Source: an uncultured Planctomycetia bacterium
Lineage (GTDB): Bacteria; Omnitrophota; Gorgyraeia; CAYVEO01
DNA length: 64,000 nt
Reading direction: 5' to 3'
Assembly: GCA_964449965.1 (NCBI GenBank)
Contig: CAYVEO010000006.1
Span: forward strand, 308-64,307
The stretch's first letter is position 1. The number at the start of each line of letters is the position of its first letter. The translations under genes were made by a program, and so were the position numbers. Of this stretch, positions 16,394 to 45,467 are shown piece after piece. The notes beneath the pieces were generated by a model. It did not search any database. It saw nothing but the letters and a program-made list of their open reading frames with translations, and had not been told where the DNA came from.

Positions 16394-16522
16394 GTGAGAC
16401 GCAGGAAGGTAGTGAATTACCTTCTGAAGGTAACAAAAGGGTGTCAGTAGGTTTTCTACCTTTGACACCCTTTTTTCTTGCTTGACTTTGGGAGCAGAAT
16501 ATGCTAATTTGTATATAACATT

Positions 16523-18356: not shown

Positions 18357-18364
18357 GGGGTTAT

Positions 18365-24794: not shown

Positions 24795-24796
24795 AG

Positions 24797-27259: not shown

Positions 27260-27260
27260 T

Positions 27261-27283
27261 GTAGGACGGGCGTCTCGCCTGTC
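27261..27283. repeat. GC-rich palindromic hairpin GTAGGACGGGCGTCTCGCCTGTC just after the stop codon (terminator-like); near-identical copy at 49018-49040
   Basis: The stem GACGGGCG/CGCCTGTC is read from the sequence. The second copy GTAGGACAGGCGTCCCGCCTGTC is a perfect palindrome. Confidence 0.5.
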
Positions 27284-27305
27284 AACCTAATTCACAGGAG
27301 GTATT

Positions 27306-27893: not shown

Positions 27894-27906
27894 TAATGGA
27901 GGAATT

Positions 27907-29291: not shown

Positions 29292-29298
29292 ATTATAA

Positions 29299-29784: not shown

Positions 29785-29785
29785 G

Positions 29786-30529: not shown

Positions 30530-30560
30530 TTACACAAATTAAAAATGTTTAGATGTCTTA

Positions 30561-30860
30561 ATGGGATACCAATGGCCTGGTAATATCAGGGAATTGAAAC
30601 ATTTGATAGAACGTCTTAGCCTGCTAAAAGTTGGAAAGAACATTAAACTAACAGACCTACCCCATGAGATGAGATTGCCTGTAGTTAACGGGAGAATATT
30701 AGAACCTGGTAAGTATTCTTTTCAGGAGGTAATTTCTTCTACCGAGAGAGAATTTATAACCTCTGCTCTCCAGATGGCAGGAGGCAACAAAAGCAAAGCA
30801 GCAGAGATATTGAAAATGAAACCCTCCACATTTCGGGATAAATTAAAAAAGATACGGTAA
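30561..30860 (+). pseudogene. C-terminal remnant of a sigma-54 activator (WPGNIREL plus Fis-type HTH only)
   Basis: The 99-aa ORF begins exactly at the YQWPGNIRELKHLIERL motif and ends with an HTH (AAEILKMKPSTFRDKLKKI). REC and AAA+ domains are absent. An intact paralog lies at 41368-42720 in the same relative position of the duplicated module. Confidence 0.55.
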
Positions 30861-30996
30861 CCCGTCATTCTCACGCAATTCCGTGAGATATTGTTATGAA
30901 GTCATTGCGAGGAACGTAGTGACGAAGCAATCTAATATTTATGTAACACATTTATAAACAACATGTTATATAAATCAGACATATCTGAATTTAACT

Positions 30997-31013
30997 TTGG
31001 CATGAAAATTGCT
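30997..31013 (+). promoter_or_regulatory. sigma-54 promoter TTGGCATGAAAATTGCT
   Basis: TGGCAT-N5-TTGCT with canonical GG/GC spacing. The predicted start (about 31024) lies 5 nt before the ATG at 31029. The ATGs at 30963 and 31002 fall inside or upstream of the promoter and are therefore rejected as starts. Confidence 0.55.
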
Positions 31014-31028
31014 ATAATTATGTATTAT

Positions 31029-32342
31029 ATGAAATACAGTTTGTGTTTAATATGGTTACTCATAATAATATGTGTCCTTGGTGTAGGATTAGAAGCAGCA
31101 ACTATGCCTGAGATACATGGTTATAGCCGTCAGGAATACCGGGTGCGCTGGAGTGAAACCCAGGAAGACCAGGATTTCTACCAGTATCTTTCGTTAAATT
31201 TGGGTAAGGAAGGAAAGGATAAAGTCACAGGCTCCTTCTTTAGCCGGCTCTCCGCTGATATTGACGGCCGCCAGTCAGGCAATAGTTTCTATCCCTTCGC
31301 TGATATTACCGATACTTATCAGGATAATATAAATGGGCGCATCTATCAGGCATACCTGGATTTTAATGATGTGAAGTATTTGTCAAAACTGCGGTTAGGC
31401 AGGCAATATGTCTATGAAGGCGAGACGGTCCAGTTTGATGGGGCGAGATTAGAACTAAAGCCCTACTGGGAGAATATTGATTTCTCTTTCTACGGGGGCG
31501 TGCCTACGCATCTTTACGAATCTTCTCTTTCAGGCGACTGGATTTTAGGAACCGGTATTGAAGGGCACCCATTAGATGGGACAAGACTGAGATTGGATTA
31601 TGTCTATGTAGAGGATGATAATGCCACCTGGGGTGACCACAACGATGACCTCTGGGTTTTAAGCGGATGGCAGAGGGTTATGGACAACTTAAACCTGAAT
31701 GGAAAATACTCTTTCTTGGATAAAAAAGAAAGGGACGCATCTTTACGCGCAAATCTGAACTATCCTGACAAAGACCTCTCTTTTCAGGCGTCTTATTTCA
31801 GGCAACTGGAGACCTTAAGGGATTTTTCCGTAGAATTTTCTCCATTTTATCCGGTGGCTGGCGAATATTTCCCGTTCCATCAGTATGATTTTTCCTGCCG
31901 TAAAGGGTTCGGGGAAAAATTGGGAATAGAGGCAGGGGTTAGCACACGGGATTTGGTAGAAGATACAACTGAGACTAATTTTAATCACGAATATGATAGG
32001 TATTTTATTACCATTTCTATTTATGAATTCTTGCTTGAAGATACAGAGTTCTCTCTCACTGCCGAGCAATGGAGTTCAAACGACGATATAAGGACTTTAG
32101 GTTTTGAGGCGGAGAAGAAATTTAATAAAAACGTAGAAGTCAAGGCAGGCTCATATTATTCTCTTTACAAATATGATTATTATACAAGCCAGGAGAGGGA
32201 TGATGTGCGGACTGCTTTTCTTGAATTGGAATTAAAGCCGTGGAAGAAAAAAGATGTAAAGTGGGAAATAAGATACGAAGCCGAAGACGATGATTTTGAT
32301 GTGTATCATACACTTAAAACAGGGATAAAATGTAATTTTTGA
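31029..32342 (+). CDS. predicted outer-membrane beta-barrel (porin-like) protein, paralog of the 42923 gene
   Basis: Signal peptide MKYSLCLIWLLIIICVLGVGLEAA. Alternating amphipathic beta-strand character and a C-terminal ...KCNF. Shares about 40% identity by eye with 42923-44233 (for example YRVRWSE, DIDGR, LYKYDYYT, IRYEAEDDDF). Confidence 0.5.
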   Translation: MKYSLCLIWLLIIICVLGVGLEAATMPEIHGYSRQEYRVRWSETQEDQDFYQYLSLNLGKEGKDKVTGSFFSRLSADIDGRQSGNSFYPFADITDTYQDNINGRIYQAYLDFNDVKYLSKLRLGRQYVYEGETVQFDGARLELKPYWENIDFSFYGGVPTHLYESSLSGDWILGTGIEGHPLDGTRLRLDYVYVEDDNATWGDHNDDLWVLSGWQRVMDNLNLNGKYSFLDKKERDASLRANLNYPDKDLSFQASYFRQLETLRDFSVEFSPFYPVAGEYFPFHQYDFSCRKGFGEKLGIEAGVSTRDLVEDTTETNFNHEYDRYFITISIYEFLLEDTEFSLTAEQWSSNDDIRTLGFEAEKKFNKNVEVKAGSYYSLYKYDYYTSQERDDVRTAFLELELKPWKKKDVKWEIRYEAEDDDFDVYHTLKTGIKCNF

Positions 32343-32354
32343 CAGGAGGCTGTC

Positions 32355-33380
32355 TTGAAAAGAAGGACAATAGTGATATTCTTAGGGGTGTTAATTCTGG
32401 GACTTTTATCCTCAGGCTGTAAAGAATGGCCAATAAAGTTCAGCCATAAGAACCACCTCAAGCAGAGAATAGAGTGTGAATCCTGCCATGCCATTAAGCC
32501 AGGATACGAACTCCCTGCAATACCTGATATGACAGTCTGTACCACATGCCATGATGTTGATAAAGAGGCAGGTTTAAAAGAAATCAAAGAACATAAGACT
32601 GCACCAGCCGAGTGTGGTAAATGCCATATAGGAATACCAGGTGAGAAGAAGATAGAGTGGGCAAAATGGTGTGAATTCCCGGACGTCAGATTCTCGCATG
32701 AAAATCACTATAAAGAACGTCATATAGACTGTAAAATCTGCCATGAGGGAATAGATAAAGTAGATAAGCCAACCATGCTACAGGTTCCCCGTATGGAAAC
32801 CTGTATGGGATGTCATGAAAAGAATAAGAAAGAAATTAACTGCCAGCAATGCCATAGCGAGAAGGCAAAAGAGACCCGTCCACAGGACCATCTGGTTGGT
32901 TGGCAGAAGAGACATGGTGATTTAATAAAAGAAGGGATTGACCCGCGCGGTGAGGCAAAATGTTACCGTTGTCACAGAAAAGATTCCTGCGTTGACTGCC
33001 ATCAGAATGAAGCACCGGCTGACCATACCAACCACTGGAGACAGCGCGGGCATGGGATTGCATCGGAGATTGACAGGGACAGGTGTGCAAAGTGTCATCA
33101 GATGGACGAGTGTGTGCGGTGCCACGAACAGACTGCACCGCGGAATCATACCGCAGGGTGGAGTGGAAGCAGTCAGAGGCATTGTTCAGTCTGCCACTGG
33201 CCCCTTAATGCTGTTGGTTGTTCTGCGTGTCATAAAGGAACGCCAGGACACGATGCTGCGCCGGACAGGCCGGGCGGGACTGCACACACATCGGGAAGCG
33301 ATTGCAGGGCATGTCATATGCCCGGTACCGGGTTACCACACCCGGATGACGGTGGGAGTTGTGAACGTTGCCATAGATGA
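32355..33380 (+). CDS. lipoprotein multiheme c-type cytochrome (14 CxxCH in 341 aa)
   Basis: Lipobox LLSSGC. I counted 14 CxxCH motifs. Paralogous to 44178-45050 in the N-terminal region (NHL.QRIECESCH versus NHLERGLECPTCH). Confidence 0.8.
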   Translation: MKRRTIVIFLGVLILGLLSSGCKEWPIKFSHKNHLKQRIECESCHAIKPGYELPAIPDMTVCTTCHDVDKEAGLKEIKEHKTAPAECGKCHIGIPGEKKIEWAKWCEFPDVRFSHENHYKERHIDCKICHEGIDKVDKPTMLQVPRMETCMGCHEKNKKEINCQQCHSEKAKETRPQDHLVGWQKRHGDLIKEGIDPRGEAKCYRCHRKDSCVDCHQNEAPADHTNHWRQRGHGIASEIDRDRCAKCHQMDECVRCHEQTAPRNHTAGWSGSSQRHCSVCHWPLNAVGCSACHKGTPGHDAAPDRPGGTAHTSGSDCRACHMPGTGLPHPDDGGSCERCHR

Positions 33381-33387
33381 AATAAAG

Positions 33388-33437
33388 TTGACAGTTAACA
33401 GTTTACAGTTGAAATGCCATAGTTGTTTACTGTAAAT
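33388..33437. promoter_or_regulatory. heptamer array GTTGACA-GTTAACA-GTTTACA-GTTGAAA plus inverted copy ACTGTAAA (TTTACAGT-N19-ACTGTAAA dyad)
   Basis: Shares the 19-mer ACAGTTAACAGTTTACAGT with 3565-3583. Sits between two cytochrome genes upstream of the 33480 RBS. Confidence 0.4.
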
Positions 33438-33479
33438 TAGAAAGTCATGGCTAAATTTATGTAAAAGGAGGTTTTTGAA

Positions 33480-36293
33480 ATGTTTAAAGATGAATTTAGA
33501 GAACGGTGTTTAATAATAATTGCATTGTTATTGGCCGTAGGATTAGCCCTGGCGTGCGGCGGTGGTGGAGGAGGTGACAAAGGAGAGGAGACCACGGGCA
33601 AGGTCTCAGGGACTGTTACAGGGAGTGGGGGACTGGCAAATGTAACAGTATCCACAGACAAAGGTGACCATACCACGACCACAGATAGCAGCGGTAATTA
33701 TACCCTCTCAGGCGTTGAACCCAATACATATACCCTGCGCGCCTCTTTGAATAATTATGAGACAACAACTGCTATTGATAAGGTAATAACTGCCGGCAAT
33801 ACCACGTCACAGAATTTTGAACTTTCTACTTTCAATGACAAACCATATGTAGGTTCTGTGCGCTGTAAGGTATGCCATAATGCCCTGTATCAATCATGGA
33901 AAGATACCCTGCATACCAAGAAACTGCGTTATCCAACAGACTCACCGGGAGTAGTGGCGGATAGCGATGCTGATGGGACAGATGATTTTAAAGAAGGGTT
34001 AGACCTTTCAACTGACAGCAGTTTCAGCGCCTACGGAACCAATGCCCCTGTTTTAGGTTATTCAGATGGAAACTATACTGTTAAGATTGGCCAGGTTACC
34101 TATACAGTCAATAAGACCATAGGTGGTAAGTGGAAACAGAGATACGTCACACAGCAGGGAAATAGCCACTATATCTTACCAGTCCACTATAATGTAGAAG
34201 CCAGGGACTGGACAACATATGATGCATCAAACTGGTATGACAGTTCTAACCTTCCTATATATGGTCCAGGTGATACATTTGTCTCCAAGGGAAATCAGAA
34301 TGATGCATATGAAAGGCGATGCGGCGGATGCCATGTTTCAGACTATGTGCCGAATTACATTGCTTCTACAGGGGAATGGCAGCACAGTTATCTTGAAATG
34401 CCTATCGGCTGCGAAATGTGTCATGGACCTGGTGGTAAGCATATCGTTACCCAGAGTCCGGAAGATATTATAGACCCCGGAAATTCAAGTGACCTTACCA
34501 CTGATCTGGCAAACCAGGTCTGCGGAATGTGCCATACCCGCGGGACAGGCGAAGCAGGCAGCGGGGCCCCCTCTAATTATGATTTCCCATTTGATACCAC
34601 ATTACAGAGGATTTTCAGACCAGGCGATACATTAACTAATTTCTATACTCATACAACAACATCCAGTGAGTATTGGGGACTAGATTTTCTTTCATCAACT
34701 TATCTGATTAATTCTACCAATGTCTTAGGTAAGAACTTTGTGACCTCTAAAGGTCATCATCAGCAGTATCTTGACCTGTATAACGGACCTCATGCCGCGG
34801 CTGGTCTTTCCTGTTTTGATTGCCATGACCCTCATGGTGCAACACAGGAAGGACAGATAATTACCAGCCGTAGTGACAATGACGGCGAGAATATTACAAT
34901 CCAAACCGGGACTGATAATAATACACTATGCCTTTCCTGTCATGCTGAGGATACTCCTTTTACAACAGTGACCAATGAAATGGTAAGAGATGTTTCGTCC
35001 GGTACAGTAAACGATACCTTGAAAAATGCTGTATTAGACCATATGGGTGAAGAGGCAGTGATGCGTGATGAGGATGAGATTACTTATGACCCTGAAGGGA
35101 CAGGCGTGGGCAGATGCACAAAATGTCATATGCCAAAGACTGCAAAGACTGCGGCCGATTGGTTAGATGATGAGGCCGGGTTTGATAAAGGGGACTTACA
35201 CTCCCATACATTCCGGGTTATATTTCCCAATGTGAACCGCGTCCTTGGTCTTACTATGACAAATTCATGCACAGAATGTCACGCCACAACAAGTGAACAT
35301 TTCAAAGAGGCGTGGCAGTGGTCAATCTCAGGACATGCAGATTTGAGTGCAAGTCATTATAAATATGCCACTGGGTCAACCCGTACGTCCTGTGTGAGAT
35401 GCCATTCCGGTGAAGGTTTTGTTGACAGCATCGCTGATGGTGTGGGCGGCAAATCTGACTCTACCGAGGAGGCTACTCTTAGAACAGACTATAAACTCCA
35501 TTCCTGCTACACCTGCCATGACCCGACAGCGAGTTCGCCCACAGCACGTCGTTCTATTCCTACAGTGAAATTCCCGTCTGACGTCACAAAAACACAGGCT
35601 GAGGTTGGGGATTCTGCTTTATGTATCTCCTGCCATCAGTATAGAACTGCAGGAGCTACAGCAGTTGCAGACGCGATAGCCAGCCGCGACAGCGGCGGTA
35701 GTTTCAGCACAGTCGCAGGAAAGGTTAATCCGCATTATCGCGGCGGAGCCGCCATGTTGTATGGTTCAGGCGTGGACGGCGGATATGAATATACAGGCAA
35801 GACCTATTCTAACGGTATAACCGCGCACCAGACCACGAACTGTGTTGGCTGTCACATGGCTGATGCCAGCAGCAATAATGTCGGCGGCCATACATGGGCT
35901 ATGCACACCGCGGATGAGAGCGAACTTAACAACGCTATCTGTGCCACATGCCATACAGGCGGCGTGTCGTCATTTGACACATTCCGTTCAGGCAGCACAG
36001 GAAAGGATTATGACGGTGACGGGAACAGTACAGAGGGCATTCAGGAAGAGATTGCAGGTTTAAAGACCGCCCTTTTAACCCAGTTGAGCACTCTGGGTAT
36101 AACCAGCACCACCATTTATCCTTACTGGAGCGGGACCGCCTGGGTTGATAAAGCAATAAAGGGCGCCTATACCTATAATTTTGTTGACCATGACCCCGGG
36201 GCAGGGATTCATAACTTTGCCTATGCAATTCAACTCTTACGTGATGCTATAGAAGATATTAGCGGGGCAGCTCCAGCAGGTGTTCGTCCCTAA
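33480..36293 (+). CDS. large lipoprotein multiheme c-type cytochrome (13 CxxCH) with N-terminal Gly linker and Ig/PEGA-like domain
   Basis: Lipobox LALACGGGGGG. N-terminal beta-sandwich-like segment (GKVSGTVTGSGGLANVTVSTDKGDHTTTTDSSGNYTLSGVEPNTYTLRAS). 13 CxxCH motifs spread over about 800 aa, consistent with an extracellular decaheme-type cytochrome. Confidence 0.75.
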   Translation: MFKDEFRERCLIIIALLLAVGLALACGGGGGGDKGEETTGKVSGTVTGSGGLANVTVSTDKGDHTTTTDSSGNYTLSGVEPNTYTLRASLNNYETTTAIDKVITAGNTTSQNFELSTFNDKPYVGSVRCKVCHNALYQSWKDTLHTKKLRYPTDSPGVVADSDADGTDDFKEGLDLSTDSSFSAYGTNAPVLGYSDGNYTVKIGQVTYTVNKTIGGKWKQRYVTQQGNSHYILPVHYNVEARDWTTYDASNWYDSSNLPIYGPGDTFVSKGNQNDAYERRCGGCHVSDYVPNYIASTGEWQHSYLEMPIGCEMCHGPGGKHIVTQSPEDIIDPGNSSDLTTDLANQVCGMCHTRGTGEAGSGAPSNYDFPFDTTLQRIFRPGDTLTNFYTHTTTSSEYWGLDFLSSTYLINSTNVLGKNFVTSKGHHQQYLDLYNGPHAAAGLSCFDCHDPHGATQEGQIITSRSDNDGENITIQTGTDNNTLCLSCHAEDTPFTTVTNEMVRDVSSGTVNDTLKNAVLDHMGEEAVMRDEDEITYDPEGTGVGRCTKCHMPKTAKTAADWLDDEAGFDKGDLHSHTFRVIFPNVNRVLGLTMTNSCTECHATTSEHFKEAWQWSISGHADLSASHYKYATGSTRTSCVRCHSGEGFVDSIADGVGGKSDSTEEATLRTDYKLHSCYTCHDPTASSPTARRSIPTVKFPSDVTKTQAEVGDSALCISCHQYRTAGATAVADAIASRDSGGSFSTVAGKVNPHYRGGAAMLYGSGVDGGYEYTGKTYSNGITAHQTTNCVGCHMADASSNNVGGHTWAMHTADESELNNAICATCHTGGVSSFDTFRSGSTGKDYDGDGNSTEGIQEEIAGLKTALLTQLSTLGITSTTIYPYWSGTAWVDKAIKGAYTYNFVDHDPGAGIHNFAYAIQLLRDAIEDISGAAPAGVRP

Positions 36294-36294
36294 G

Positions 36295-36414
36295 AAAAAA
36301 GGGGACGGTTCTATTTTTGGGAAAATTCTTAACTTTAAAACCTCATTGGTTACAGTCATAATAATTAAGTATTTCATCCCTTTCTCGCATTAAAAATAGA
36401 ACCGTCCCCTTTTT
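36295..36414. repeat. 120-bp element bounded by perfect 23-bp inverted repeats (AAAAAGGGGACGGTTCTATTTTT ... AAAAATAGAACCGTCCCCTTTTT)
   Basis: The arms at 36296-36318 and 36392-36414 are exact reverse complements, separated by 73 nt of AT-rich sequence. Lies directly after the cytochrome stop codon. Confidence 0.6.
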
Positions 36415-36455
36415 CCATTGACTTTTTTATTTTTACAAAGTAAAATACAGTCATC

Positions 36456-37086
36456 GTGGAGATACTACATTATTTTGCATCAGGGTTGTGCCACCAGATA
36501 CAGGACAGGAGTTTTCAGTTTGGCAGTTTTACCCTTCCATTCTGTGTTAGATGTACCGGGGTCTATTGGGGGGTGCTTTCTGGTTTCATCGGTGTCTGGT
36601 TAGCAGGTGGTGGAAAGAGAAGCGGGTTACCTGTCTCTACCATGAGATGGGTATCGCTTTTGTTGCTGTGCATATTTCCTGACAGAGAGGCTCTTGCCTT
36701 TCTCAGTCCCGCTTTTCGTTCGCACTTATATTGGCGTGGGATTTGGCATATCCTTCTCTATATATTTGATTCCACTCTTTAATTATTTTTTCTGGTATAA
36801 CAAAAGGGATAATAAACCAATACTTGATAAATTTACGGTATTTATCCTGATTTTATTTATGAGTCTAAGTATCTTTGAGTTTGGACGGTTTTCGGATTCT
36901 GTGGTCGCCGGATATATATTGGGAATTTTGTCTGTGGCTGGGGCAATGATTCTTTATCTTGTTCTTAATCTTACTATAATAAGTTCAATACCCTGGTTTC
37001 GCAGATTTCCCAGGAGTTATCTTGTCCGGATTCCTTTAAGTTTATTTTTAGCAATGGGAGAAATCACACTGATAAAAATATGGTAA
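36456..37086 (+). pseudogene. DUF2085-like small membrane protein, apparently split into two overlapping ORFs (36456-36782 and 36694-37086) by a frameshift
   Basis: The first ORF carries the CHQ...RSF...G..PFCVRCTGVYWG signature. Both ORFs are hydrophobic and overlap in different frames over 36694-36782. Confidence 0.35.
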
Positions 37087-38495
37087 AAGATACCATATCT
37101 TCATTATTTGGAAAAATCGGCATATATCTTCCTGCCCGGAAAGGAGAAGGTTTGAGAATCGGCAGGAGGTTCCTTACCTTTCTCGGGATATTATTTTTCC
37201 TGTCAATATTTGGCTTTATTGGACTTTTGGAATACAGCACAAGTCCAACATTCTGTAATTCCTGCCATGTGATGCACCCATATTACAACGCATGGAAGAC
37301 GTCAAGCCATAATTTTGTATCGTGCGTAGATTGTCACTATCCACCCGGACTTACAAAGGAATTCAAGGGTAAGATACAGGCAATCACGCAGGTGGCAAAA
37401 TTCGTGACACGGACATACAGCACCAAACCCTATGCTGAGATAGAGGATTCAAGCTGTCTCAGAAAAGGCTGTCATGAAAAAAGGCTGTTAGAAGGCAAGG
37501 TTACGTTCAAACGCGGTATCCAATTTGACCATAAGCCTCATCTTGTAGGTATGCGAAGAGGCAAGAAATTACGCTGTACCTCCTGCCATTCCCAGATAGT
37601 CCAGGGTCAGCATATTGCGGTTACTGAGGAGGTATGCTTCATCTGCCATTTCAAGGGTGAAAAGAACGGCAGGGAAATAACCCCTGTCGGTGGCTGCCCG
37701 CTCTGCCATGGTGCACCTGAGAAGGAAATAAAAGTTGCAGGGATGAGTTTTAATCACAAGGATTTCGTAGGTAGAGGAGTTGAATGCCAGAAGTGTCACC
37801 TTGATGCTGTCCAGGGAGAAGGCGAAGTTCCCAGGGAGATGTGTCTCACGTGCCATGGCGAACCTGAGAGACTATCTAAGTATGAAGACCATGAATTTAT
37901 CCACGAGAATCATGTAACAAAACATAAGGTGGAATGTTTCCAGTGCCATCTCACTATAAAACATGCTGTCCAGACTACTATCAAACCTCTGGAATATAGC
38001 TGTGATGTCTGTCACCTATCAAAACATGCAGGTGAAAAAGAGATGTATATGGGTAAAGGAGGCAGGGGAGTGGACGATATGCCAAGCCTTATGTTTCTGG
38101 CACAGGTAGACTGTGTGGCATGCCACATCAATCCTGGAGAGGAATTACCTGCTACGCACTTTGCAGGTAAAACCTATAAGGCTACCGGCGCTGCATGTTT
38201 TGGATGCCATGGCAAGGGCTACGCAGAGATGTTAGATAGTTGGAAAATTAGTATTCAGGAATCATTGGATGAGTTAGGACCTATTTTAGAAAAGGCAAGA
38301 GGATTGGTTCAATATTTAAATAAAGATGACTCTAAGTATAAAGAAGTATCCAGACTATTAGAGGATGCAGAATATAACTATAATTTTGTCAAGTTTGGAA
38401 AAGGTATCCATAACGTCTCTTATGCAGACTCATTGATAGAGGTATCTAAGAACAATGCCAGGAATATTATATCTATTATTTCTGAACAAAGGTGA
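37080..38495 (+). CDS. NapC/NirT-like membrane-anchored multiheme c-type cytochrome (11 CxxCH)
   Basis: An N-terminal TM followed immediately by CNSCHVMH and CVDCH, as in the NapC/NrfH/CymA family. I counted 11 CxxCH motifs. Confidence 0.75.
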   Translation: MVKDTISSLFGKIGIYLPARKGEGLRIGRRFLTFLGILFFLSIFGFIGLLEYSTSPTFCNSCHVMHPYYNAWKTSSHNFVSCVDCHYPPGLTKEFKGKIQAITQVAKFVTRTYSTKPYAEIEDSSCLRKGCHEKRLLEGKVTFKRGIQFDHKPHLVGMRRGKKLRCTSCHSQIVQGQHIAVTEEVCFICHFKGEKNGREITPVGGCPLCHGAPEKEIKVAGMSFNHKDFVGRGVECQKCHLDAVQGEGEVPREMCLTCHGEPERLSKYEDHEFIHENHVTKHKVECFQCHLTIKHAVQTTIKPLEYSCDVCHLSKHAGEKEMYMGKGGRGVDDMPSLMFLAQVDCVACHINPGEELPATHFAGKTYKATGAACFGCHGKGYAEMLDSWKISIQESLDELGPILEKARGLVQYLNKDDSKYKEVSRLLEDAEYNYNFVKFGKGIHNVSYADSLIEVSKNNARNIISIISEQR

Positions 38496-38899
38496 AAGAT
38501 ATGAATCGTCAATCCGAAAAAAGGTTATTAGTAGTAGATGATGAAGACCTACTAAGAAACTCTCTCGCCAAACTTCTTGCAATGAGAGGATATTCTGTCT
38601 TATCAGCTGCCGATGGCAACGAGGCGCTCAAATTAATTAAAGAAAATATGTTTCAATTGGTAATCACAGACCTTAAGATGCCTGGCATGAACGGTATGGA
38701 ACTTATCCATGAGGTTCGGAAATTGTCACCGGATACAAAGGTAGTGGTTATTACCGCCCATGGTGAGTGGAATACCTATCTTGAGGCTATGGAAAGAGGG
38801 GCGTTTGCATATCTTAATAAGCCTATCAATACGGGCGAGTTGTTTTCTACGATTAAAAGGGCATTGTTAGAAGGTGAAGGAAAAAATAAATTTACATAG
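38492..38899 (+). CDS. single-domain response regulator (CheY-like receiver)
   Basis: RLLVVDDE, the DLKMPGMNG phospho-acceptor region and a conserved Lys region. No output domain. Confidence 0.85.
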   Translation: MKDMNRQSEKRLLVVDDEDLLRNSLAKLLAMRGYSVLSAADGNEALKLIKENMFQLVITDLKMPGMNGMELIHEVRKLSPDTKVVVITAHGEWNTYLEAMERGAFAYLNKPINTGELFSTIKRALLEGEGKNKFT

Positions 38900-38948
38900 G
38901 GACAGAAAATAATAGACAGGGATGGTTTTTGGTGATAAAATATATATT

Positions 38949-39878
38949 ATGAATACAATAAAAAGAGTAATTGAAATATTACTGATATTCTTATTCGGAA
39001 CGGTTTTCTGTGGATGCGGAGAGCAGGAGAAGGCATTAAAAATAAAGTTTAAGGAAATAGACACATCCACCGGCCAGAAATCGTTAGATAGGGAACAGGG
39101 AGTTTTACGACTCGCCATCTCTTCTATGATATCACCGCGTGAAACAATTCACTGTTATCAGGATATATTTAATTATGTTGGCGAGAAACTAAACCGAAAG
39201 ATAAAAATAGTCCAGAAAGAGTCCTATGGAGAGACCAACGAACTTCTTCGTCAGGGAGAAGTTGACGTAGCGATGGTCTGCAGCGGCGCATATGTGGAGG
39301 CGCATGCCTCTTATGGCGCCGAACTCCTGTCGGCTCCCAAGCCACTCAGTGACAGGACATATTGTTCATACATCATCGTCCACAGAGACAGCCAGATAAA
39401 TTCAATTGAAGAGTTAAAGGGCAAGACATTTGCTTTCACTGACTCCCTGTCTAATACCGGGAGGCTTTATCCTGTATGGTTGCTTTCCCAGAAAGGATAT
39501 AAGCCTGAGACTTATTTTGCAAGATACATCTATTCAGGCAGTCATGATAATTCAATCCGTGCTGTCAGCGATGGTTTAATTGACGGGGCGGCAGTAGATT
39601 CTCTCGTATTTCTTTATATGAATACCAATCAGCCTGATGTTGTATCTCTCACCAGGGTAATAGCAGTATCACCTGTTTTTGGACTTCCTCCCTTAATTGT
39701 CCATCCCAGGATGGATGTTGAGTTAAAAAAGATTTTGCAGGAAATTCTGTTGAATATGCACAGCGATGAAAAAGGGAAGGTTCTACTTAGCAGGATAAAA
39801 ATAGAACGGTTTATTATTCCACAGGATATGGATTATGACCCTATAAGAGAAATGAAGAAGGCAGTGGGGTATGAATAA
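38949..39878 (+). CDS. periplasmic PhnD/SsuA-type (phosphonate-binding-like, AioX/ArxX-like) solute-binding lipoprotein (ORF-track start 38922)
   Basis: Lipobox FCGCG. LRLAISSMISP...ETNELLRQGEVDVAMVCSGAYVEA...GKTFAFTDSLSNTG...DGAAVDSLVF matches the PhnD-like type 2 periplasmic binding fold. Immediately upstream of the kinase and sigma-54 regulator. Confidence 0.65.
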   Translation: MNTIKRVIEILLIFLFGTVFCGCGEQEKALKIKFKEIDTSTGQKSLDREQGVLRLAISSMISPRETIHCYQDIFNYVGEKLNRKIKIVQKESYGETNELLRQGEVDVAMVCSGAYVEAHASYGAELLSAPKPLSDRTYCSYIIVHRDSQINSIEELKGKTFAFTDSLSNTGRLYPVWLLSQKGYKPETYFARYIYSGSHDNSIRAVSDGLIDGAAVDSLVFLYMNTNQPDVVSLTRVIAVSPVFGLPPLIVHPRMDVELKKILQEILLNMHSDEKGKVLLSRIKIERFIIPQDMDYDPIREMKKAVGYE

Positions 39879-41367
39879 AAAAAAGATAGAGAATGAATCA
39901 CTGAAGGTGCGGCCTATCTCCAGTTTGAAGTTCCGTATTCTGACAGGTGTCATAGGATTGGTTCTGCTTCCGGGAATAGTGGCGATTGTTATAGCACGGG
40001 GCAGACTCGGGTCCGCACTGGAAAAAGAATTGGTAGAACGCGGAGTAGCCATTACACGTACCGTGGCAGTCCGTAGTACAAAACCGGTTCTTACCACTGA
40101 TTTGTTTACATTGCATGAACTTATCAGAAATATTATTGACAGTAACAAAGACGTTAGATATGTGATAATCTACTACCCTGAAGAACAAATTTTAATCCAT
40201 TCATTTAAAAAAGGTATTCCTAAAGGATTATTGGAGGCTAATTATATACCAGAGGGGAAAGAATTTCACCATGTTTTGTTAGAGACAGAAGAGGGTAGTA
40301 TCCGGGATGTTATAGTTCCGCTCTGGGATAAGGGTAAGGGTGTAGTCAGGGTGGGTATGTCAGAACGGAGAATCAATCACCTCCTTTCCGGTGTTACCTA
40401 TCAAATGATTGGAGTCATAGGTCTGGTTTTATTGCTCGGTATAAGCGGGGCATACATTTTAACGACCATACTCACACGCCGGCTCTTCAACCTGGTAGAT
40501 ATGGCTGCAGCAGTTGGAAAAGGTGACCTTGATGCCAAAGCACCGCAAGAGAGCAATGATGAGGTAGGAAGTCTGACATCAGCGTTTAATTCTATGGTAG
40601 AAGACCTCAAACGCCACATTACCGAACAGAAGAAGATGCAGAGTCAGTTATTTCATTCAGGTAAATTAGCAGCGATGGGGGAATTAGCCAGTTGTGTTGC
40701 TCACGAGATTAACAACCCGCTTAGTTCTATAGCAGTTTGTGCTGAATCCCTTTTAGAACGGTTGTCTCAGGGTGCATTAAACTGCTGTCTTTCTGAGAGA
40801 GAAGAATGGACAGAGTATTTAAAGAGTATAGAGAAAGAAATTCATAGATGCAAGAAAATTACAACAGCCCTTCTCAGTCTATCAAATCTGAAAGAGCCGC
40901 AGATTGCACTAATTGACATAAACCAGTTACTTGAGAACATGCTACTTTTAGTAAAGTACCAGGCTGACCGCACAGGGAAGAAAATAATAATTAAACTCGG
41001 TTCAGAGTTGCCGCTTGTCCTGGCTGATGGTGACAGTCTCCAGCAGGTATTTTTAAATCTTATGATAAACGCATTAGACCATACAAACGGCGGAGGTAAG
41101 ATAGATATTTCCACACGTATCACCCGGAGAGAGGATAAACCCTGGGTTGAGGTTGTATTAGCAGACAATGGATGCGGAATTCCCAGGGAAAATCTGGATA
41201 AAATCTTTCAGCCATTTTTTACCACAAAGAAAGACGGTACTGGCAGCGGATTAGGATTGTCCATCTCTAAACGTATTGTTGAAGAACACAATGGGCAAAT
41301 TGTTGTGACGAGTCAACTGAATAAAGGTTCTGTTTTTTCTGTCTATTTACCACTGGAGAAAGATTAG
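39871..41367 (+). CDS. sensor histidine kinase (two TM helices, periplasmic domain of about 130 aa, HAMP, HisKA, HATPase_c)
   Basis: H-box ELASCVAHEINNPL. N/G boxes (LMINALDHT, DNGCGIP, GSGLGLSI). Confidence 0.85.
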   Translation: MNKKKIENESLKVRPISSLKFRILTGVIGLVLLPGIVAIVIARGRLGSALEKELVERGVAITRTVAVRSTKPVLTTDLFTLHELIRNIIDSNKDVRYVIIYYPEEQILIHSFKKGIPKGLLEANYIPEGKEFHHVLLETEEGSIRDVIVPLWDKGKGVVRVGMSERRINHLLSGVTYQMIGVIGLVLLLGISGAYILTTILTRRLFNLVDMAAAVGKGDLDAKAPQESNDEVGSLTSAFNSMVEDLKRHITEQKKMQSQLFHSGKLAAMGELASCVAHEINNPLSSIAVCAESLLERLSQGALNCCLSEREEWTEYLKSIEKEIHRCKKITTALLSLSNLKEPQIALIDINQLLENMLLLVKYQADRTGKKIIIKLGSELPLVLADGDSLQQVFLNLMINALDHTNGGGKIDISTRITRREDKPWVEVVLADNGCGIPRENLDKIFQPFFTTKKDGTGSGLGLSISKRIVEEHNGQIVVTSQLNKGSVFSVYLPLEKD

Positions 41368-42720
41368 ATGAATACTAAGATAAATCTGCTCATAGTTGAT
41401 GATGAAGAGACCCTTCGCCTGCATTTGAAAAAGGAGTTCCTGCGTAAGGACTACGAGGTCCATGAAGCAGGAGAAGGGCAGGCTGCTTTAAACATACTTA
41501 AAGAACATCATATAGATGTGGTTTTATTAGACCTCGTTATGCCAGGGTTAAGCGGTCTTGATGCATTAAAAGAGATTAAGGCAAATTATCCTCTCGTAGA
41601 GGTCATCGTCCTTACAGGAAATGCAACGATTGACACCGCTATCGCCTCTATGAAATTAGGCGCTTATGATTATCTGATGAAACCCTACAACATTGCGGAG
41701 TTATCCATGATTATAGAGCGGGCTCACAATCATGCCCTTCTTTCCAGAGATAGCCAGCGGTTACAGCACGAGTTGGCACGCCAGGCTAAGTTTGAAGACT
41801 TTATTCATGGAGATGAGAAAATGAAGTCAGTCTTTAAATTGATAGAAAAGGTGGCGCCGACTAATTCCACAGTCTTATTATACGGTGAGACAGGGACAGG
41901 AAAAGAACTCGCTGCCAAGTCTATTCACAAGAACAGTAATAGAAAAGAAAATTCTTTTATAGCAGTTGACTGCGGGGCTTTACAGGATACGTTGTTGGAA
42001 AGCGAGTTGTTCGGGCATGAACGCGGGGCGTTTACCGGAGCAATAAGGGATAAACAGGGGTTAATTGAAGTAGCAGACAGCGGAACACTTTTCCTGGATG
42101 AAATCGGCGATATCTCTCCTGCGATGCAGGTCAAACTCCTCCGATTCTTAGAATCAGGCGAGTACCGTATGGTGGGCAGTACCAGAGTTTTGAAAATAGA
42201 TGTGCGGATTATCGCCGCTACAAATCGGAATCTGGAAAGAATAGTGAAGGAGGGCAGATTCCGTGAAGACCTCTATTACCGGCTGAACGTTGTTAAGATA
42301 GAGATTCCGCCATTAAGAGAAAGAAAAGATGACATTATGCCTCTGGCAGAGCATTTTCTCAAAAAATATAATTCATCACTTGGAAGACATATTAAAGGTA
42401 TTTCTAAAGATGCGGAAGAGAAACTGTTAAGTTATGCCTGGCCAGGAAATGTTCGGGAACTTGAGAATGCCATTGAACGGGTCTCCATTCTTTGTGATAG
42501 TGACTGGATTACGATAGAAGACCTGCCTTTTCTTACCCCTAAAGGTACTCTGAATATAGAAAAAGGCAGTCTTGACTCTATGCCCCTTTCTGAATTGGAG
42601 AAAATGCACATTATTAATGTCCTTAAATCCTGTGATGGCAACAAGACCAGGGCTGCAGGTATCTTAGGTATTGAAGTCCGCACCCTTTACAATAAACTGA
42701 AAACTTACGATGTAACATAG
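41368..42720 (+). CDS. sigma-54-dependent response regulator (NtrC family)
   Basis: REC domain (LLIVDDEE, DVVLLDLVMPG). AAA+ domain with GETGTGKE, GAFTGA and ESELFGHERGAFTGA. C-terminal HTH. Confidence 0.9.
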   Translation: MNTKINLLIVDDEETLRLHLKKEFLRKDYEVHEAGEGQAALNILKEHHIDVVLLDLVMPGLSGLDALKEIKANYPLVEVIVLTGNATIDTAIASMKLGAYDYLMKPYNIAELSMIIERAHNHALLSRDSQRLQHELARQAKFEDFIHGDEKMKSVFKLIEKVAPTNSTVLLYGETGTGKELAAKSIHKNSNRKENSFIAVDCGALQDTLLESELFGHERGAFTGAIRDKQGLIEVADSGTLFLDEIGDISPAMQVKLLRFLESGEYRMVGSTRVLKIDVRIIAATNRNLERIVKEGRFREDLYYRLNVVKIEIPPLRERKDDIMPLAEHFLKKYNSSLGRHIKGISKDAEEKLLSYAWPGNVRELENAIERVSILCDSDWITIEDLPFLTPKGTLNIEKGSLDSMPLSELEKMHIINVLKSCDGNKTRAAGILGIEVRTLYNKLKTYDVT

Positions 42721-42868
42721 AGATGTTCTTAATACTGTGAAAAAAATTCCGTGTGTGTGAAAAAAATTCATGGTTTTGTTCCCACTGTTAATAACCTGCA
42801 TCCACATAAGACAATCTTAACATATTTAAATTTAATCAGTTACAAAAAATATAAGGTTTTTACGTTCT

Positions 42869-42886
42869 TTGGCATGAATTATGCTT
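42869..42886 (+). promoter_or_regulatory. sigma-54 promoter TTGGCATGAATTATGCTT
   Basis: TGGCAT-N5-ATGCT with GG/GC 12 nt apart. Predicted start about 42896, a 27-nt leader with a GAGGAG RBS before the ATG at 42923. Confidence 0.6.
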
Positions 42887-42922
42887 ATATATTGACTAAT
42901 AGTCATTGCGAGGAGTGCCAGA

Positions 42923-44233
42923 TTGATGAATATTAATTTTAAATTGTGGATTATTATTTTGACGATGCTTGTCCTGTGCACAGGCGGTTGGGCAGATGAT
43001 TTTAATATCCACGGTTATTTAGATACAAAATACCGGGTTAGGTGGAGCGAGAATGAAACTGACCAGGATATTTATGAATATCTCTCCATATATGCGGGAG
43101 ATGAAACAACTGATAAGGTAAGCGCCTCAATATATGGAAGGGTGTCAGGAGACATAGACGGAAGGCGTGAACCAGACGCATTCTCTGAATTCAGGGAAAT
43201 CACGGATACTTACAATGATAATATTAATGGCAGGTTGTATCATGCATATCTTACGATAAGGGAATTGGGAACTCTATCTAAGGTCCGGTTTGGCAGACAG
43301 GAAGTCTATAGCGGCGAGACGCTGTATTTTGACGGCGTAAAACTTGACAGTAAGGAAATGTGGGAATTCTTATCTGTCTCATTATACGGAGGTGTGCCTG
43401 TGCACCTGTATGAATCTCCTTCGTCAGGTGATTACCTCTGGGGAAGCGGTATAGAGGTCAAACCCATGGAGGGGACTTTATTGAGATTGGATTCCATATA
43501 CGTTGAAGATGATAGTGATGAATGGGGAGACCACAACGATGAACTCTTTATCTTAAGTCTCTGGCAGGATATTACAAAGAATGCTAAGATATACGGTAAA
43601 TATTCTTTCCTGGAAAAAAAGGAACGTGATGCCCAGTTAGGATGTTTTATTGATGTCCCTGAACACCGCCTGACAATAGATGGAAGTTACTTCAGGCAAT
43701 TAGAAGAGTTAAGGGATTTCAGTCTGGAATTTTCACCTTACTATCCAGTAGCAGGAAGTTATCTACCGTTTCACCAGTATGATGTGAACGTGAATAAGCG
43801 GCTCTGTGATAATTTCGGGGTTGGTGCAGGCGCCACAATCAGGGAATTGATAGAGGCTGCTCAGGAGACAACTTATAACCATGCATTTCAGAGATACTAT
43901 CTGAGCGGCTCAATATATGATTTGCCAATCAAAGGGCTTAATCTTACAATAACTCTGGATGACTGGGAGACCAGCACTGATGATATTAGAACCGCTGGAA
44001 TAGATGGGGAATACGTCTTAAAGAAAGGATGGAAACTTAAAGCAGGCAGTTACTATTCATTATACAAATATGATTATTATACCGGAGAGGAAAATGACGA
44101 TGTCCGGACAGCATACGGTGAAATTAGAATAAACCTTACTAAAAACGTAGATTGGAAACTTAGATACGAGGCTGAGGATGACGATTTTAACGTCTATCAC
44201 AAGGTGGAGACAAGTGTCAAATACAATTTTTAA
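42923..44233 (+). CDS. predicted outer-membrane beta-barrel (porin-like) protein, paralog of the 31029 gene
   Basis: Signal peptide LWIIILTMLVLCTGGWA. C-terminal ...KYNF. Paralogous to 31029-32342. Confidence 0.5.
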   Translation: MMNINFKLWIIILTMLVLCTGGWADDFNIHGYLDTKYRVRWSENETDQDIYEYLSIYAGDETTDKVSASIYGRVSGDIDGRREPDAFSEFREITDTYNDNINGRLYHAYLTIRELGTLSKVRFGRQEVYSGETLYFDGVKLDSKEMWEFLSVSLYGGVPVHLYESPSSGDYLWGSGIEVKPMEGTLLRLDSIYVEDDSDEWGDHNDELFILSLWQDITKNAKIYGKYSFLEKKERDAQLGCFIDVPEHRLTIDGSYFRQLEELRDFSLEFSPYYPVAGSYLPFHQYDVNVNKRLCDNFGVGAGATIRELIEAAQETTYNHAFQRYYLSGSIYDLPIKGLNLTITLDDWETSTDDIRTAGIDGEYVLKKGWKLKAGSYYSLYKYDYYTGEENDDVRTAYGEIRINLTKNVDWKLRYEAEDDDFNVYHKVETSVKYNF

Positions 44234-45050
44234 ACCTATTTTACCTATAATATTCTTAGCGTTACTCGTGGCAGGATGTAAAGAGGAAGGGCTGAATTTC
44301 ATCCATAACAACCATTTAGAACGCGGGTTAGAGTGTCCTACCTGTCATATACAAACTGAAGATTTACCGTCTCTGCCAGATGAAGACATATGTCGGACAT
44401 GCCATGAAATAGACAGGAACAATCCGTCTGACAAATGCAGATTGTGCCACCGGGGAAAAGAAGAGAAATCAAAACCGCGTGATAGGAAAAACTATGCAGA
44501 CTTGCAGTTCTCGCATAAGAACCATTTAGAAAGAGAAATTAAGTGTGAAGAGTGCCACGGGACAGCAAAAGACGGATATTCTATCCCTGTGATGGAAGAC
44601 TGCATAAGATGCCATTCACAGATAGAACAAAAGATAGACTGTTCTAAATGCCACATGAAACTTAAAAAGGATGAAAGACCCCAGAACCATGATTATGACT
44701 GGAAGACAAGGCATGGCAAGGAGATAACATTAGAAGGCGGTTCTCCGGAAAATCAAAGATGTTACATTTGCCATAACCAGGCGAGTTGCGATACATGCCA
44801 TAAGGACGAGAAGCCCCAGAACCATACAAACCAGTGGAGATTAAGAGGACATCAGGTGATGGGCAGGATTAACAGGTCTCAATGTGCAGCATGTCATCGG
44901 CAGGACTTCTGTGTTAGTTGTCACAGTGAGGCTCCTGCTATACCCAATAACAGTTCGCACCGCCCGGGCAGGTCATGCAGTTTGTGCCACGTCCGGCTCT
45001 CGCACAGCGTTACAGATGAAACAGGCTGCACACGGTGTCATGCGAATTAA
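44178..45050 (+). CDS. lipoprotein multiheme c-type cytochrome (12 CxxCH)
   Basis: Lipobox LLVAGC. I counted 12 CxxCH motifs. The true start is uncertain (the ORF overlaps the upstream gene by 56 nt). Confidence 0.75.
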   Translation: MTILTSITRWRQVSNTIFKPILPIIFLALLVAGCKEEGLNFIHNNHLERGLECPTCHIQTEDLPSLPDEDICRTCHEIDRNNPSDKCRLCHRGKEEKSKPRDRKNYADLQFSHKNHLEREIKCEECHGTAKDGYSIPVMEDCIRCHSQIEQKIDCSKCHMKLKKDERPQNHDYDWKTRHGKEITLEGGSPENQRCYICHNQASCDTCHKDEKPQNHTNQWRLRGHQVMGRINRSQCAACHRQDFCVSCHSEAPAIPNNSSHRPGRSCSLCHVRLSHSVTDETGCTRCHAN

Positions 45051-45065
45051 AAGGAGGAAGTGAAA

Positions 45066-45467
45066 ATGCGTGAGGATATTAAGTTAACGTTCCTGTCTAT
45101 AGCAGGTCTTATTATAATAGTATTCATGTCTATGGCGTGCGGCGGTGGCGGCGGCAGCGGCGGCGATAGTGAAGGAGAGTCCATTGAGGCAACTAATGAC
45201 AATGATGTAGCGATTCATTTAAATGCATCCCGATACGCCTCAAGTGAGTGTATAAAATGCCATGGAAATATGCAGGACCAGACAACATTAGATTCAAACG
45301 TAGAAGGGATACATCCTAAACATACACGTGTTACCACGCTTACATGCACTGACTGCCATAAGAGCGTAGATTTACTCCAGAAGTCAGGTGCGAACTTAAG
45401 AAGGCAGGTGGATGTTCAAAAGTGTGTTGATTGCCACGGAACTACATTTTATCAAGGGGCGTCATAA
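45066..45467 (+). CDS. small triheme lipoprotein c-type cytochrome with poly-Gly linker
   Basis: AAGGAGG RBS 8 nt upstream of the ATG at 45066. Lipobox SMACGGGGGSGGD. Motifs CIKCH, CTDCH, CVDCH. Confidence 0.6.
   Translation: MREDIKLTFLSIAGLIIIVFMSMACGGGGGSGGDSEGESIEATNDNDVAIHLNASRYASSECIKCHGNMQDQTTLDSNVEGIHPKHTRVTTLTCTDCHKSVDLLQKSGANLRRQVDVQKCVDCHGTTFYQGAS

Follow-up and report, generated by a model that had tools for sequence, protein, structure and literature searches.

Porin-cytochrome (Pcc) conduits are the main known route by which Gram-negative bacteria exchange electrons with solids, and to our knowledge DmsEFAB of Shewanella is so far the only case in which one is connected to a molybdoenzyme. 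The two-gene Pcc systems of Ca. Kuenenia stuttgartiensis (kuste4024/4025) and Anaeromyxobacter consist of a porin and a 338-344-aa cytochrome with 12-14 hemes (PMC4245776). Arsenic-respiring molybdoenzymes can be turned on by three-component systems with ArrX, ArxX or AioX as the sensor (PMC5908839, PMC6549141), and enzymes of the Ttr clade show induction by As(V) both in Melioribacter roseus (with ArrTSR and ars genes flanking) and in Pyrobaculum aerophilum (PMC5492636). Here we describe two paralogous gene modules, each built on an outer-membrane (OM) beta-barrel and a multiheme cytochrome, in a 64,000-nt stretch of contig CAYVEO010000006.1 from an uncultured bacterium of GTDB lineage Omnitrophota (hereafter, the window). 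Both modules are predicted to encode Pcc-type conduits; module 1 has lost its regulator, and module 2 is joined to a molybdoenzyme operon with a probable link to arsenic. Coordinates are collected in Table 1.

The two barrels are 52% identical over 431 aa (E 2e-154), and both end in Phe, a residue that is invariant at the C-terminus across the family alignment. The AlphaFold2 barrel model, computed from a 39-sequence alignment, has a predicted local distance difference test score (pLDDT) of 86 and a predicted template modelling score (pTM) of 0.78. It comprises a signal helix and 24 strand elements without a plug domain, and there is no TonB box context. An earlier reading of this DNA made from the letters alone (the sequence-only reading) had proposed two paralogous OM barrels of about 440 aa ending in Phe. 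All of this is borne out, and large plug-less OM beta-barrels are predicted rather than soluble proteins. Neither barrel matched a Pfam or NCBIfam model, the MtrB_PioB family hidden Markov models (PF11854, TIGR03509) included. A search of PDB sequences with the barrel profile returned only noise and no solved sequence relative, and a profile search of a word-indexed protein database with an enlarged alignment added no new or named members. The family is sizeable, with 1,026 cluster representatives (50% identity clusters, E<=1e-3) in a database of 1.84 billion, and it is new in the sense that no Pfam or NCBIfam model describes it, which makes it at present invisible to annotation. In species-representative genomes its members are mostly from Planctomycetota, including Ca. 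Anammoxibacter and Ca. Subterrananammoxibius, and are also found in Nitrospirota, SAR324, Desulfobacterales and others.

Pcc conduits as described by Shi et al. (2014) combine a porin-like OM beta-barrel of ~18-22 strands with an adjacent gene for a multiheme c-type cytochrome, and both components are found in each module. The pairing is widely conserved. A homologue of the 12/14-heme cytochrome lies directly 3′ of the barrel in virtually all of 86 fetched loci of related barrels that have downstream sequence, often with overlapping stop and start codons, and these loci span Planctomycetota, Nitrospirota, SAR324, Desulfobacterales and others. The likeness to porin-cytochrome conduits suggested earlier thus stands, and the concern raised with it, that the barrels might have no cytochrome association in other genomes, is answered by the opposite pattern. 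A lipobox Cys is present in 25 of 28 aligned partner cytochromes, which in Planctomycetota-type loci are ~340 aa long with 12-14 hemes. The third gene usually encodes a ~950-1,250-aa 10-heme lipoprotein with an MtrC-like domain or a small tetraheme cytochrome, and quinol modules of NapC/NirT or NrfCD type are often nearby. From homology, modelled fold and gene pairing, we predict that each barrel and its cytochrome form a Pcc-type electron conduit across the OM.

The partner cytochromes of the window are themselves paralogous (38% identity, E 5e-59), and both have signal peptide and lipobox N-termini, in agreement with the sequence-only reading. For the 12-heme protein, the likelier start is a GTG at 44214. 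That reading had also set the third lipoprotein cytochromes of the two modules side by side. Their heme counts (13 and 3) and ACGGGGG lipobox/Gly linker are confirmed, but in all other respects the proteins are not homologous. The 937-aa protein has an MtrC-like domain (PF22113, 64 bits) and is predicted to be the cell-surface terminal cytochrome of module 1. Homologues of the triheme protein occur directly 5′ of the molybdenum (Mo) subunit gene in about 60 of 84 loci related to the module-2 Mo operon, making it a conserved molybdoenzyme partner.

A JGI metagenome contig (L001), with ~80% nucleotide identity to the window and full synteny across window positions 24680-38870, carries a close version of module 1. 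Its orthologue of the 937-aa cytochrome is 86% identical. Also syntenic there are the two small periplasmic cytochromes encoded 5′ of module 1, of which the 161-aa protein has four CxxCH motifs and one Cx3CH, and the 247-aa protein nine CxxCH. The NapC-type cytochrome (PF03264, 44 bits, cut-off 24.1; NrfH TIGR03153, 63 bits) is 91% identical in L001 and is predicted to act as the quinol dehydrogenase feeding the module-1 pathway.

Module 2 had been taken to end with the triheme cytochrome at 45467. Instead, the operon continues into genes for a Tat-exported molybdoenzyme, its iron-sulphur (FeS) subunit, a chaperone, a second FeS protein and functions in Mo cofactor synthesis and molybdate transport. 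Among solved structures, the best relative of the sensor encoded upstream is ArrX (6x6b), with 213 bits and 41% identity across 263 aa, against 108 bits for AioX and at most 71 bits for the phosphonate/phosphite binders PhnD and PtxB; the sensor is also below the PhnD equivalog cut-off (137 of 261). A PhnD-fold protein beside a kinase, a response regulator and a molybdoenzyme is the arrangement of ArrX/AioX-type sensors. The Mo subunit falls in the Psr/Arr/Ttr super-clade. Among NCBIfam models TtrA is nearest, followed by PhsA, DmsA and ArrA; of the proteins with a solved structure, Thermus PsrA and Shewanella ArrA come closest. No membrane-anchor subunit is encoded in the module-2 operon, and only one of the 84 related loci has an anchor of NrfD type. 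The chaperone and the 355-aa FeS protein are co-conserved with the enzyme across these loci.

Given the ArrX-like sensor, the adjoining ACR3 gene, the ars neighbours of related operons and the As(V) induction of Ttr-clade relatives, we infer that the substrate is probably an arsenic oxyanion, with arsenate reduction the most likely activity. A candidate for alternative arsenite oxidation described in Thioalkalivibrio was also considered and set aside; it concerns SoeABC, not this Mo-enzyme clade.

Relatives of the Mo operon number 380 in metagenomes. In the 84 loci for which neighbourhoods were counted, the conserved core consists of a small 3-4-heme lipoprotein cytochrome, the Mo subunit, the FeS subunit and the chaperone, often with the 355-aa FeS protein. 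Close relatives of the window Mo protein are labelled Ca. Omnitrophota, and related metagenome-assembled genomes (MAGs) are from groundwater. A trio of genes for a periplasmic binding protein, kinase and activator accompanies the Mo operon in L089 and about 20 metagenome loci, and ars genes (ArsR, ArsC, ACR3, ArsM) adjoin it in about 11 of the 84, including one Rokubacteria genome. The complete order of barrel, ~340-aa 13-heme cytochrome, small cytochrome, Mo subunit, FeS subunit, chaperone and FeS protein recurs in three Planctomycetota loci (L016, L047 and L089), and L089 also has the trio and -24/-12-like elements (GG-N10-GC).

In a neighbour-joining (NJ) tree with 100 bootstraps, barrel 2 groups with barrel 1 and the L001 orthologue (100/100), and the barrels of L016 and of L047 plus L089 are placed elsewhere. 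A cytochrome tree built in the same way agrees (67/100 for the window pair, 97/100 for L047 and L089). Orthology of barrel 2 with the other Mo-linked barrels is rejected by these trees. The module-2 conduit thus arose by duplication within this lineage. Because the other Mo-linked barrels do not form a clade with barrel 2, a conduit must have been joined to the Mo operon at least twice independently, in an Omnitrophota-like lineage and in Planctomycetota. Repeated independent assembly favours a functional rather than an accidental association. We consider the most interesting new feature of this locus to be this recurrent combination of a conduit with a Ttr-clade molybdoenzyme operon, under predicted ArrX-type sigma-54 control and beside arsenic resistance genes.

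The anchor-less operon is widespread. Operons with a small cytochrome, Ttr-clade Mo subunit, FeS subunit and chaperone but no anchor occur in L090 (3616-11605) and about 10 other loci (L094, L095, L104, L129, L137-L139, L157, L161), in Rokubacteria, NC10 and others. They are repeatedly beside ArsR, ArsM, ACR3 and ArsC genes and an ArrX-like binding protein-kinase-activator trio. These operons are candidates for an uncharacterised family of arsenic-respiration enzymes in its own right.

The explanation that we favour, with a probability of roughly 0.6 for the whole, is that the window encodes two paralogous Pcc-type conduits, one without its regulator and one tied to an arsenic-linked molybdoenzyme. 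In each, a plug-less barrel of ~22-24 strands and a 12-14-heme lipoprotein cytochrome would carry electrons across the OM. In module 1, the NapC/NrfH-type membrane cytochrome would take electrons from quinol and pass them via the small periplasmic cytochromes to the barrel-1/14-heme pair, and from there to the 937-aa surface cytochrome; the dedicated kinase and sigma-54 activator of this module were lost in a single 2.4-kb deletion. In module 2, the duplicated barrel/cytochrome pair would have been joined to a new output, the triheme lipoprotein and the anchor-less Ttr-clade molybdoenzyme with its FeS subunit and chaperone. A three-component system of the AioXSR/ArrXSR type, with the ArrX-like sensor, would switch on module 2 through a sigma-54 promoter, and its conduit would link the molybdoenzyme electrically with the other side of the OM.

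The loss of the module-1 regulator is recorded by alignment. Window 24680-30545 corresponds to L001 1-5965 and window 30546-33378 to L001 8410-11298; exactly L001 5966-8409 is absent. In L001, genes for a histidine kinase of 478 aa and a sigma-54 activator of 452 aa, both intact, lie between those for the 9-heme cytochrome and the barrel. The deletion took the kinase, from about 20 nt into its gene, and activator codons 1 to ~342. The remaining open reading frame (ORF) shares 79% identity with the C-terminal part of the L001 activator, but 36% with that of the intact activator starting at 41368. The junction and the 99-aa ORF are both found unchanged in a second, independently assembled MAG, annotated as Ca. 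Omnitrophica (GCA_016193245.1) and 97.3% identical to the window. An assembly artefact is therefore rejected: the deletion is a real event that has become fixed in this lineage. The sequence-only reading had described a decayed activator; the 99-aa remnant with its helix-turn-helix (HTH) segment is as described, but it is the product of a single event, and gradual decay is rejected.

Module 1 carries further lesions. Because ~41 nt of the barrel-1 leader, including an AAGGAGG Shine-Dalgarno sequence, are missing relative to L001, the barrel-1 ATG is only ~16 nt 3′ of the -12 element. The DUF2085 gene, a single 213-aa gene in L001, is split by tblastn into frames 1 and 2 at an 11-nt gap, and is either a pseudogene or the product of a sequencing error. 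The structural genes have nevertheless stayed intact, and purifying selection acts on them: the ratio of non-synonymous to synonymous substitution rates (dN/dS) against L001 is 0.10-0.12 for module-1 genes (0.10 for barrel 1). Barrel 1 differs from that of GCA_016193245.1 by 17 substitutions, four of them non-synonymous (dN/dS 0.08), a value that covers divergence after the shared deletion and has limited weight given the mosaic nature of this comparison. With genes intact and so constrained, module 1 has probably kept its expression in another way; the candidates are a sigma-70-like promoter and read-through from the cytochrome genes upstream. A sigma-70-like sequence with a perfect extended -10 (TTAACT-16-TGcTATAAT) is present at 30991-31018, overlapping the -24/-12 element. 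The deletion represents ordinary regulatory loss, but a cleanly documented one, and it is new in that the structural genes left behind are intact and still constrained.

The mosaic pattern in GCA_016193245.1 is of separate interest. Its genes 5′ of the deletion differ from the window by 0-2 nt, the ~100 nt between palindrome and promoter (3970-4065, against window 30893-30990) are unrelated sequence, and the start of the 14-heme cytochrome gene (5430-5816, against window 32355-32741) is 11% divergent (synonymous divergence, dS, 0.41). This suggests recombination within the population.

Several points weigh against the favoured explanation. The best structural matches of the barrel are TonB receptors and transport barrels (Cir, OccAB4, PfeA), not MtrB, and the likeness to OmbB/OmbC and kuste4024 is drawn from their published description, not from sequence. 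In about 80 of the 84 Mo-operon relatives a barrel is absent, which means that elsewhere the enzyme does without a conduit. The Mo subunit is below all curated cut-offs (TtrA NF011567, 360/1750; ArrA NF041714, 129/1600; DmsA TIGR02166, 177/778). The closeness of the sensor to ArrX was judged among solved structures, of which ArxX has none, and in the ArrX/AioX family the conserved residues of the binding pocket do not tell whether arsenate or arsenite is selected (PMC5908839). The sigma-54 promoters are called by consensus match only, and rpoN of this genome was not seen. Finally, with three lesions (regulator deletion, loss of leader and Shine-Dalgarno sequence, DUF2085 frameshift), module 1 may be silent.

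The location of the module-2 enzyme could be read in two ways. The triheme lipoprotein holds the gene position of the module-1 surface cytochrome and has the same lipobox-Gly tether, so that the enzyme may be displayed on the surface. By analogy with DmsEFAB, module 2 would then be an arsenate-sensing, sigma-54-controlled system in which an arsenate reductase of the Ttr clade, distinct from Arr, sits on the cell surface together with the tethered triheme cytochrome and is fed via a dedicated conduit. We give this specific form well below an even chance. If true, the cell could respire mineral-sorbed As(V), and the operon would suggest how microbes might reduce arsenic bound to minerals in groundwater. 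At least as likely, though still short of an even chance, is that the triheme cytochrome and molybdoenzyme stay in the periplasm and the barrel/12-heme conduit links them to an extracellular partner, either for arsenite oxidation coupled to Mn/Fe oxides or humics, or for electron uptake from Fe(II), minerals or partner cells to support arsenate reduction. The scarcity of barrels among Mo operons that have the small cytochrome makes the periplasm the default location. Module 2 has no large surface cytochrome, and a 12-14-heme cytochrome with its porin could span the OM without an outer one (Shi et al., PMC4245776). Yet a periplasmic arsenate reductase could draw electrons straight from the NapC-type cytochrome, making a conduit needless; electron uptake would have no energy-conserving step; and the gene position and tether of the triheme protein speak for the surface.

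The enzyme may alternatively act on another oxyanion (tetrathionate, thiosulfate/polysulfide, selenium or antimony), with the ars genes a coincidental resistance function. The ranking of TtrA and then PhsA as best NCBIfam matches fits this, as does the closest solved structure, the Thermus polysulfide/thiosulfate reductase. JGI annotations name relatives as tetrathionate reductase, and ars neighbours are found in only about 13% of related loci. Moreover, ars systems handle antimony too. Still, no other solved binding protein reaches more than about half the score that ArrX has with the sensor, ACR3 adjoins the operon, and ars genes recur beside it in unrelated phyla, Rokubacteria among them. 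Together with the response of Ttr-clade genes to As(V) in Melioribacter and Pyrobaculum (PMC5492636), this leaves a non-arsenic substrate unlikely, although a serious competitor to the arsenic assignment.

Regulation bears on a further alternative, that the two modules are equivalent metal- or mineral-reducing conduits and that the activator at 41368 serves the module-1 promoter in trans. Besides the window and L001, about 11 other loci have a sigma-54 activator next to the barrel, and a -24/-12 match remains in front of barrel 1, conserved in L001, so the sequence-only reading was right to place a sigma-54 activator beside these modules and to see a retained promoter-like element. Because -24/-12 matches across the window (34 found, 28.7 expected) are not above chance, the case for these promoters comes from where they lie and from their conservation, not from their number. 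Upstream of barrels, strict matches show a ~6-fold enrichment (5 loci against 0.8 matches expected), but among the 11 loci with a neighbouring activator only two satisfy the strict rule. Consistent with equivalence, the barrels and partner cytochromes are paralogous, and both -24/-12-like elements share the core TGGCATGAA. Moreover, an exact 14-mer, AGTCATTGCGAGGA, occurs 5′ of each barrel (30900-30913 and 42901-42914) and nowhere else in the 64 kb. The 14-mer copies differ in position relative to the -24/-12 elements, and the module-1 copy forms part of GTCATTGCGAGGAACGTAGTGACGAAGCAATC, a longer element. The 14-mer may represent a small repeat or be left over from the duplication.

Trans-activation, as proposed in the sequence-only reading, is not supported by the comparison of regulators. 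Counting the deleted pair, the window has had three kinase/activator systems, of which those at 9850-12706 and 39871-42720 remain; the three activators are mutually 42-44% identical and have different HTH segments. Judged from its L001 orthologue, the deleted activator is no closer to the one at 41368 (42%) than to the one at 11321 (44%), and the former is paired with the ArrX-like sensor. The candidate upstream sites also differ. Module 1 has a palindrome, ~110 bp 5′ of the -24 element, whose L001 version (TTTCACGAAATTCCGTGAAA) has paired changes; a search for a shared regulator site found a single copy of it in the 64-kb window. It could be where an activator binds, or it could have served as terminator for the activator gene now lost. 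Module 2 has direct repeats (at 42736 and 42756) that are candidate activator-binding sites. The outputs are also unlike, a 937-aa surface cytochrome in one case and a triheme lipoprotein with a Tat molybdoenzyme in the other, and only module 2 is under an ArrX-like sensor system near ACR3. The functional equivalence assumed earlier is thus unsupported, and we regard this alternative as improbable.

That the barrels are ordinary diffusion porins or transporters merely neighbouring cytochrome genes is very improbable: their resemblance to transport barrels and lack of MtrB/PioB matches are outweighed by the cytochrome pairing in several phyla, the absence of plug and TonB box context, and a size class that fits published Pcc porins with 18-22 predicted strands (PMC4245776).

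Table 1. Features of the two modules and their surroundings, in window coordinates.
Feature	Position	Strand	Basis or remark
Small periplasmic multiheme cytochromes, 161 aa and 247 aa, 5′ of module 1	29299-30529	+	Paired_CXXCH Pfam matches
Deletion junction	30545-30546	+	2,444 bp missing relative to L001
Regulator remnant ORF, 99 aa	30561-30860	+	AAA+ lid (PF25601) and Fis-type HTH_8 (PF02954) only
20-bp palindrome, TCTCACGCAA and TTCCGTGAGA	30869-30888	+	inverted repeat, terminator-like
Sigma-54-type -24/-12 element TGGCATGAAAATTGCT	30998-31013	+	consensus match, kept in L001 and GCA_016193245.1 (L091)
Barrel 1, predicted OM beta-barrel of conduit, 437 aa	31029-32342	+	homology, AlphaFold2 model
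14-heme lipoprotein cytochrome, 341 aa, partner of barrel 1	32355-33380	+	CxxCH count, homology, lipobox
937-aa lipoprotein cytochrome, 13 CxxCH	33480-36293	+	CarboxypepD_reg (Ig-like) N-terminal domain, MtrC/MtrF-like domain
DUF2085 membrane-protein gene, disrupted	36456-37086	+	11-nt frameshifting deletion
Membrane-anchored NapC/NirT/NrfH-type multiheme cytochrome, 471 aa	37080-38495	+	11 CxxCH and 1 Cx4CH
Single-domain response regulator	38492-38899	+	L001 synteny stops here
ArrX-like periplasmic oxyanion-binding sensor (Phosphonate-bd fold)	38922-39878	+	PF12974, 210 bits
Histidine kinase (sCache/HAMP/HisKA/HATPase) and intact sigma-54 activator response regulator (450 aa; 41368-42720)	39871-42720	+	
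Two exact 14-nt direct repeats TGTGAAAAAAATTC, 20 nt spacing	42736-42769	+	~100-135 bp 5′ of -24
Sigma-54-type -24/-12 element TGGCATGAATTATGCT	42870-42885	+	consensus match; followed by GAGGAG and barrel-2 start codon
Barrel 2, 436 aa, in-lineage paralogue of barrel 1	42923-44233	+	homology, NJ tree
12-heme lipoprotein cytochrome, 290 aa, partner of barrel 2	44178-45050	+	CxxCH count, homology, lipobox
Triheme lipoprotein cytochrome, 135 aa, Gly-rich tether	45060-45467	+	3 CxxCH
Tat-exported molybdopterin oxidoreductase, 979 aa	45482-48421	+	RR motif, conserved HTSICE Cys
FeS subunit, 4x[4Fe-4S], 187 aa	48438-49001	+	
TorD/NarJ-type maturation chaperone, 217 aa	49065-49718	+	
Polyferredoxin-like FeS protein, 355 aa	49687-50754	+	
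MoaA (Mo-cofactor synthesis)	50827-51942	+	
MOT1-type molybdate transporter	51882-53117	+	
ACR3 arsenite efflux transporter	53120-54160	-	TIGR00832 equivalog, 462 bits (cut-off 282.8); convergent with operon

The whole window is a multiheme cytochrome island with more than 140 heme motifs. Outside the two modules, a 1,042-aa cytochrome (6749-9877) has 42 CxxCH motifs and 21 paired-CXXCH Pfam repeats, and its gene is directly 5′ of another histidine kinase/sigma-54 activator pair (9850-11328, 11321-12706). Downstream of that activator, TGGCACGGAAATTGCT (14913-14928) is the sole perfect match in the window to TGGCAC-N5-TTGCW; it precedes a run of cytochrome and NHL-repeat genes (15320-20014) by ~400 nt and probably marks a third sigma-54 operon. 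Also present, at 24791-28713, are genes for an 822-aa NHL-repeat beta-propeller with a long Ser/Thr/Asn-rich C-terminal region and two LpoB/CsgG-like lipoproteins. These are kept 5′ of module 1 in L001 and GCA_016193245.1, and may be OM or surface accessory proteins of the pathway. An AbiEii-type toxin fragment (14069-14692) and an AAA_14/DUF4143 ATPase (54683-55987) flank the cytochrome clusters, a hint of mobile or defence-related DNA bordering inserted modules.

The conduits themselves are of a kind already known, including duplicated, regulator-bearing modules in Geobacter and the two-gene form with 12-14 hemes in anammox Planctomycetes. As in MtrCAB, MtoAB and PioAB, a cytochrome would be threaded through a large barrel, and the 937-aa cytochrome has an MtrC-like domain; in contrast to these systems, the window barrel has ~22-24 rather than 26 strands, the partner has 12-14 rather than 10 hemes, and there is no MtrB_PioB match. 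The order of a ~440-aa barrel followed by a multiheme cytochrome (here 341 aa with 14 hemes and 290 aa with 12) is that of the Pcc systems (Shi et al., 2014), in which an outer lipoprotein cytochrome is likewise an optional third gene. A difference is that the barrel-associated cytochrome of the window is itself a predicted lipoprotein. Tandem duplicated modules preceded by regulators are known from G. sulfurreducens (orfR-ombB-omaB-omcB / orfS-ombC-omaC-omcC; PMC4245776). The Geobacter regulators are of TetR type, whereas those of the window belong to sigma-54 two- or three-component systems, and one window copy is tied to a molybdoenzyme.

The regulatory genes of module 2 resemble AioXSR, ArxXSR and ArrXSR (Badilla et al., 2018, PMC5908839) in placing a PhnD-fold sensor, kinase and response regulator beside an enzyme of the DMSO reductase family. 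Unlike those systems, the enzyme is not ArrA, ArxA or AioA, and the operon under control includes an OM conduit. Melioribacter MROS_1076 and Pyrobaculum PAE1265 (PMC5492636), compared here by description rather than direct homology, share the TtrA-like subunit with an ArrTSR-type regulator and ars genes near. They are described as TtrABC with a membrane subunit, whereas the window operon has no anchor, a small lipoprotein cytochrome and a porin-cytochrome pair. Arsenate reductase activity has long been suspected in Ttr-clade enzymes, and if the assignment is true, module 2 would provide a defined operon in which to test for it.

In its logic, module 2 comes closest to DmsEFABGH of Shewanella oneidensis, an extracellular DMSO/iodate reductase (PMC11302344, PMC9048795). 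Both operons combine a barrel, a multiheme cytochrome, a Tat molybdoenzyme, an FeS subunit and a chaperone without a membrane anchor, and in both the barrel/cytochrome pair is paralogous to the organism's own metal-reduction conduit. The components themselves differ: the window barrel is outside the MtrB/DmsF family, the Mo subunit is of the Ttr clade and not DmsA, and neither cytochrome belongs to the DmsE decaheme family (TIGR03508, cut-off 192; the triheme protein scores at most 25.6 bits and the 12-heme protein has no match). The triheme lipoprotein is an addition here, and a surface location of the enzyme is one of two readings. If the reading is true, these operons would be a second, unrelated and recurrent example beside DmsEFAB, and the combination of a conduit with a soluble reductase would be a general modular design.

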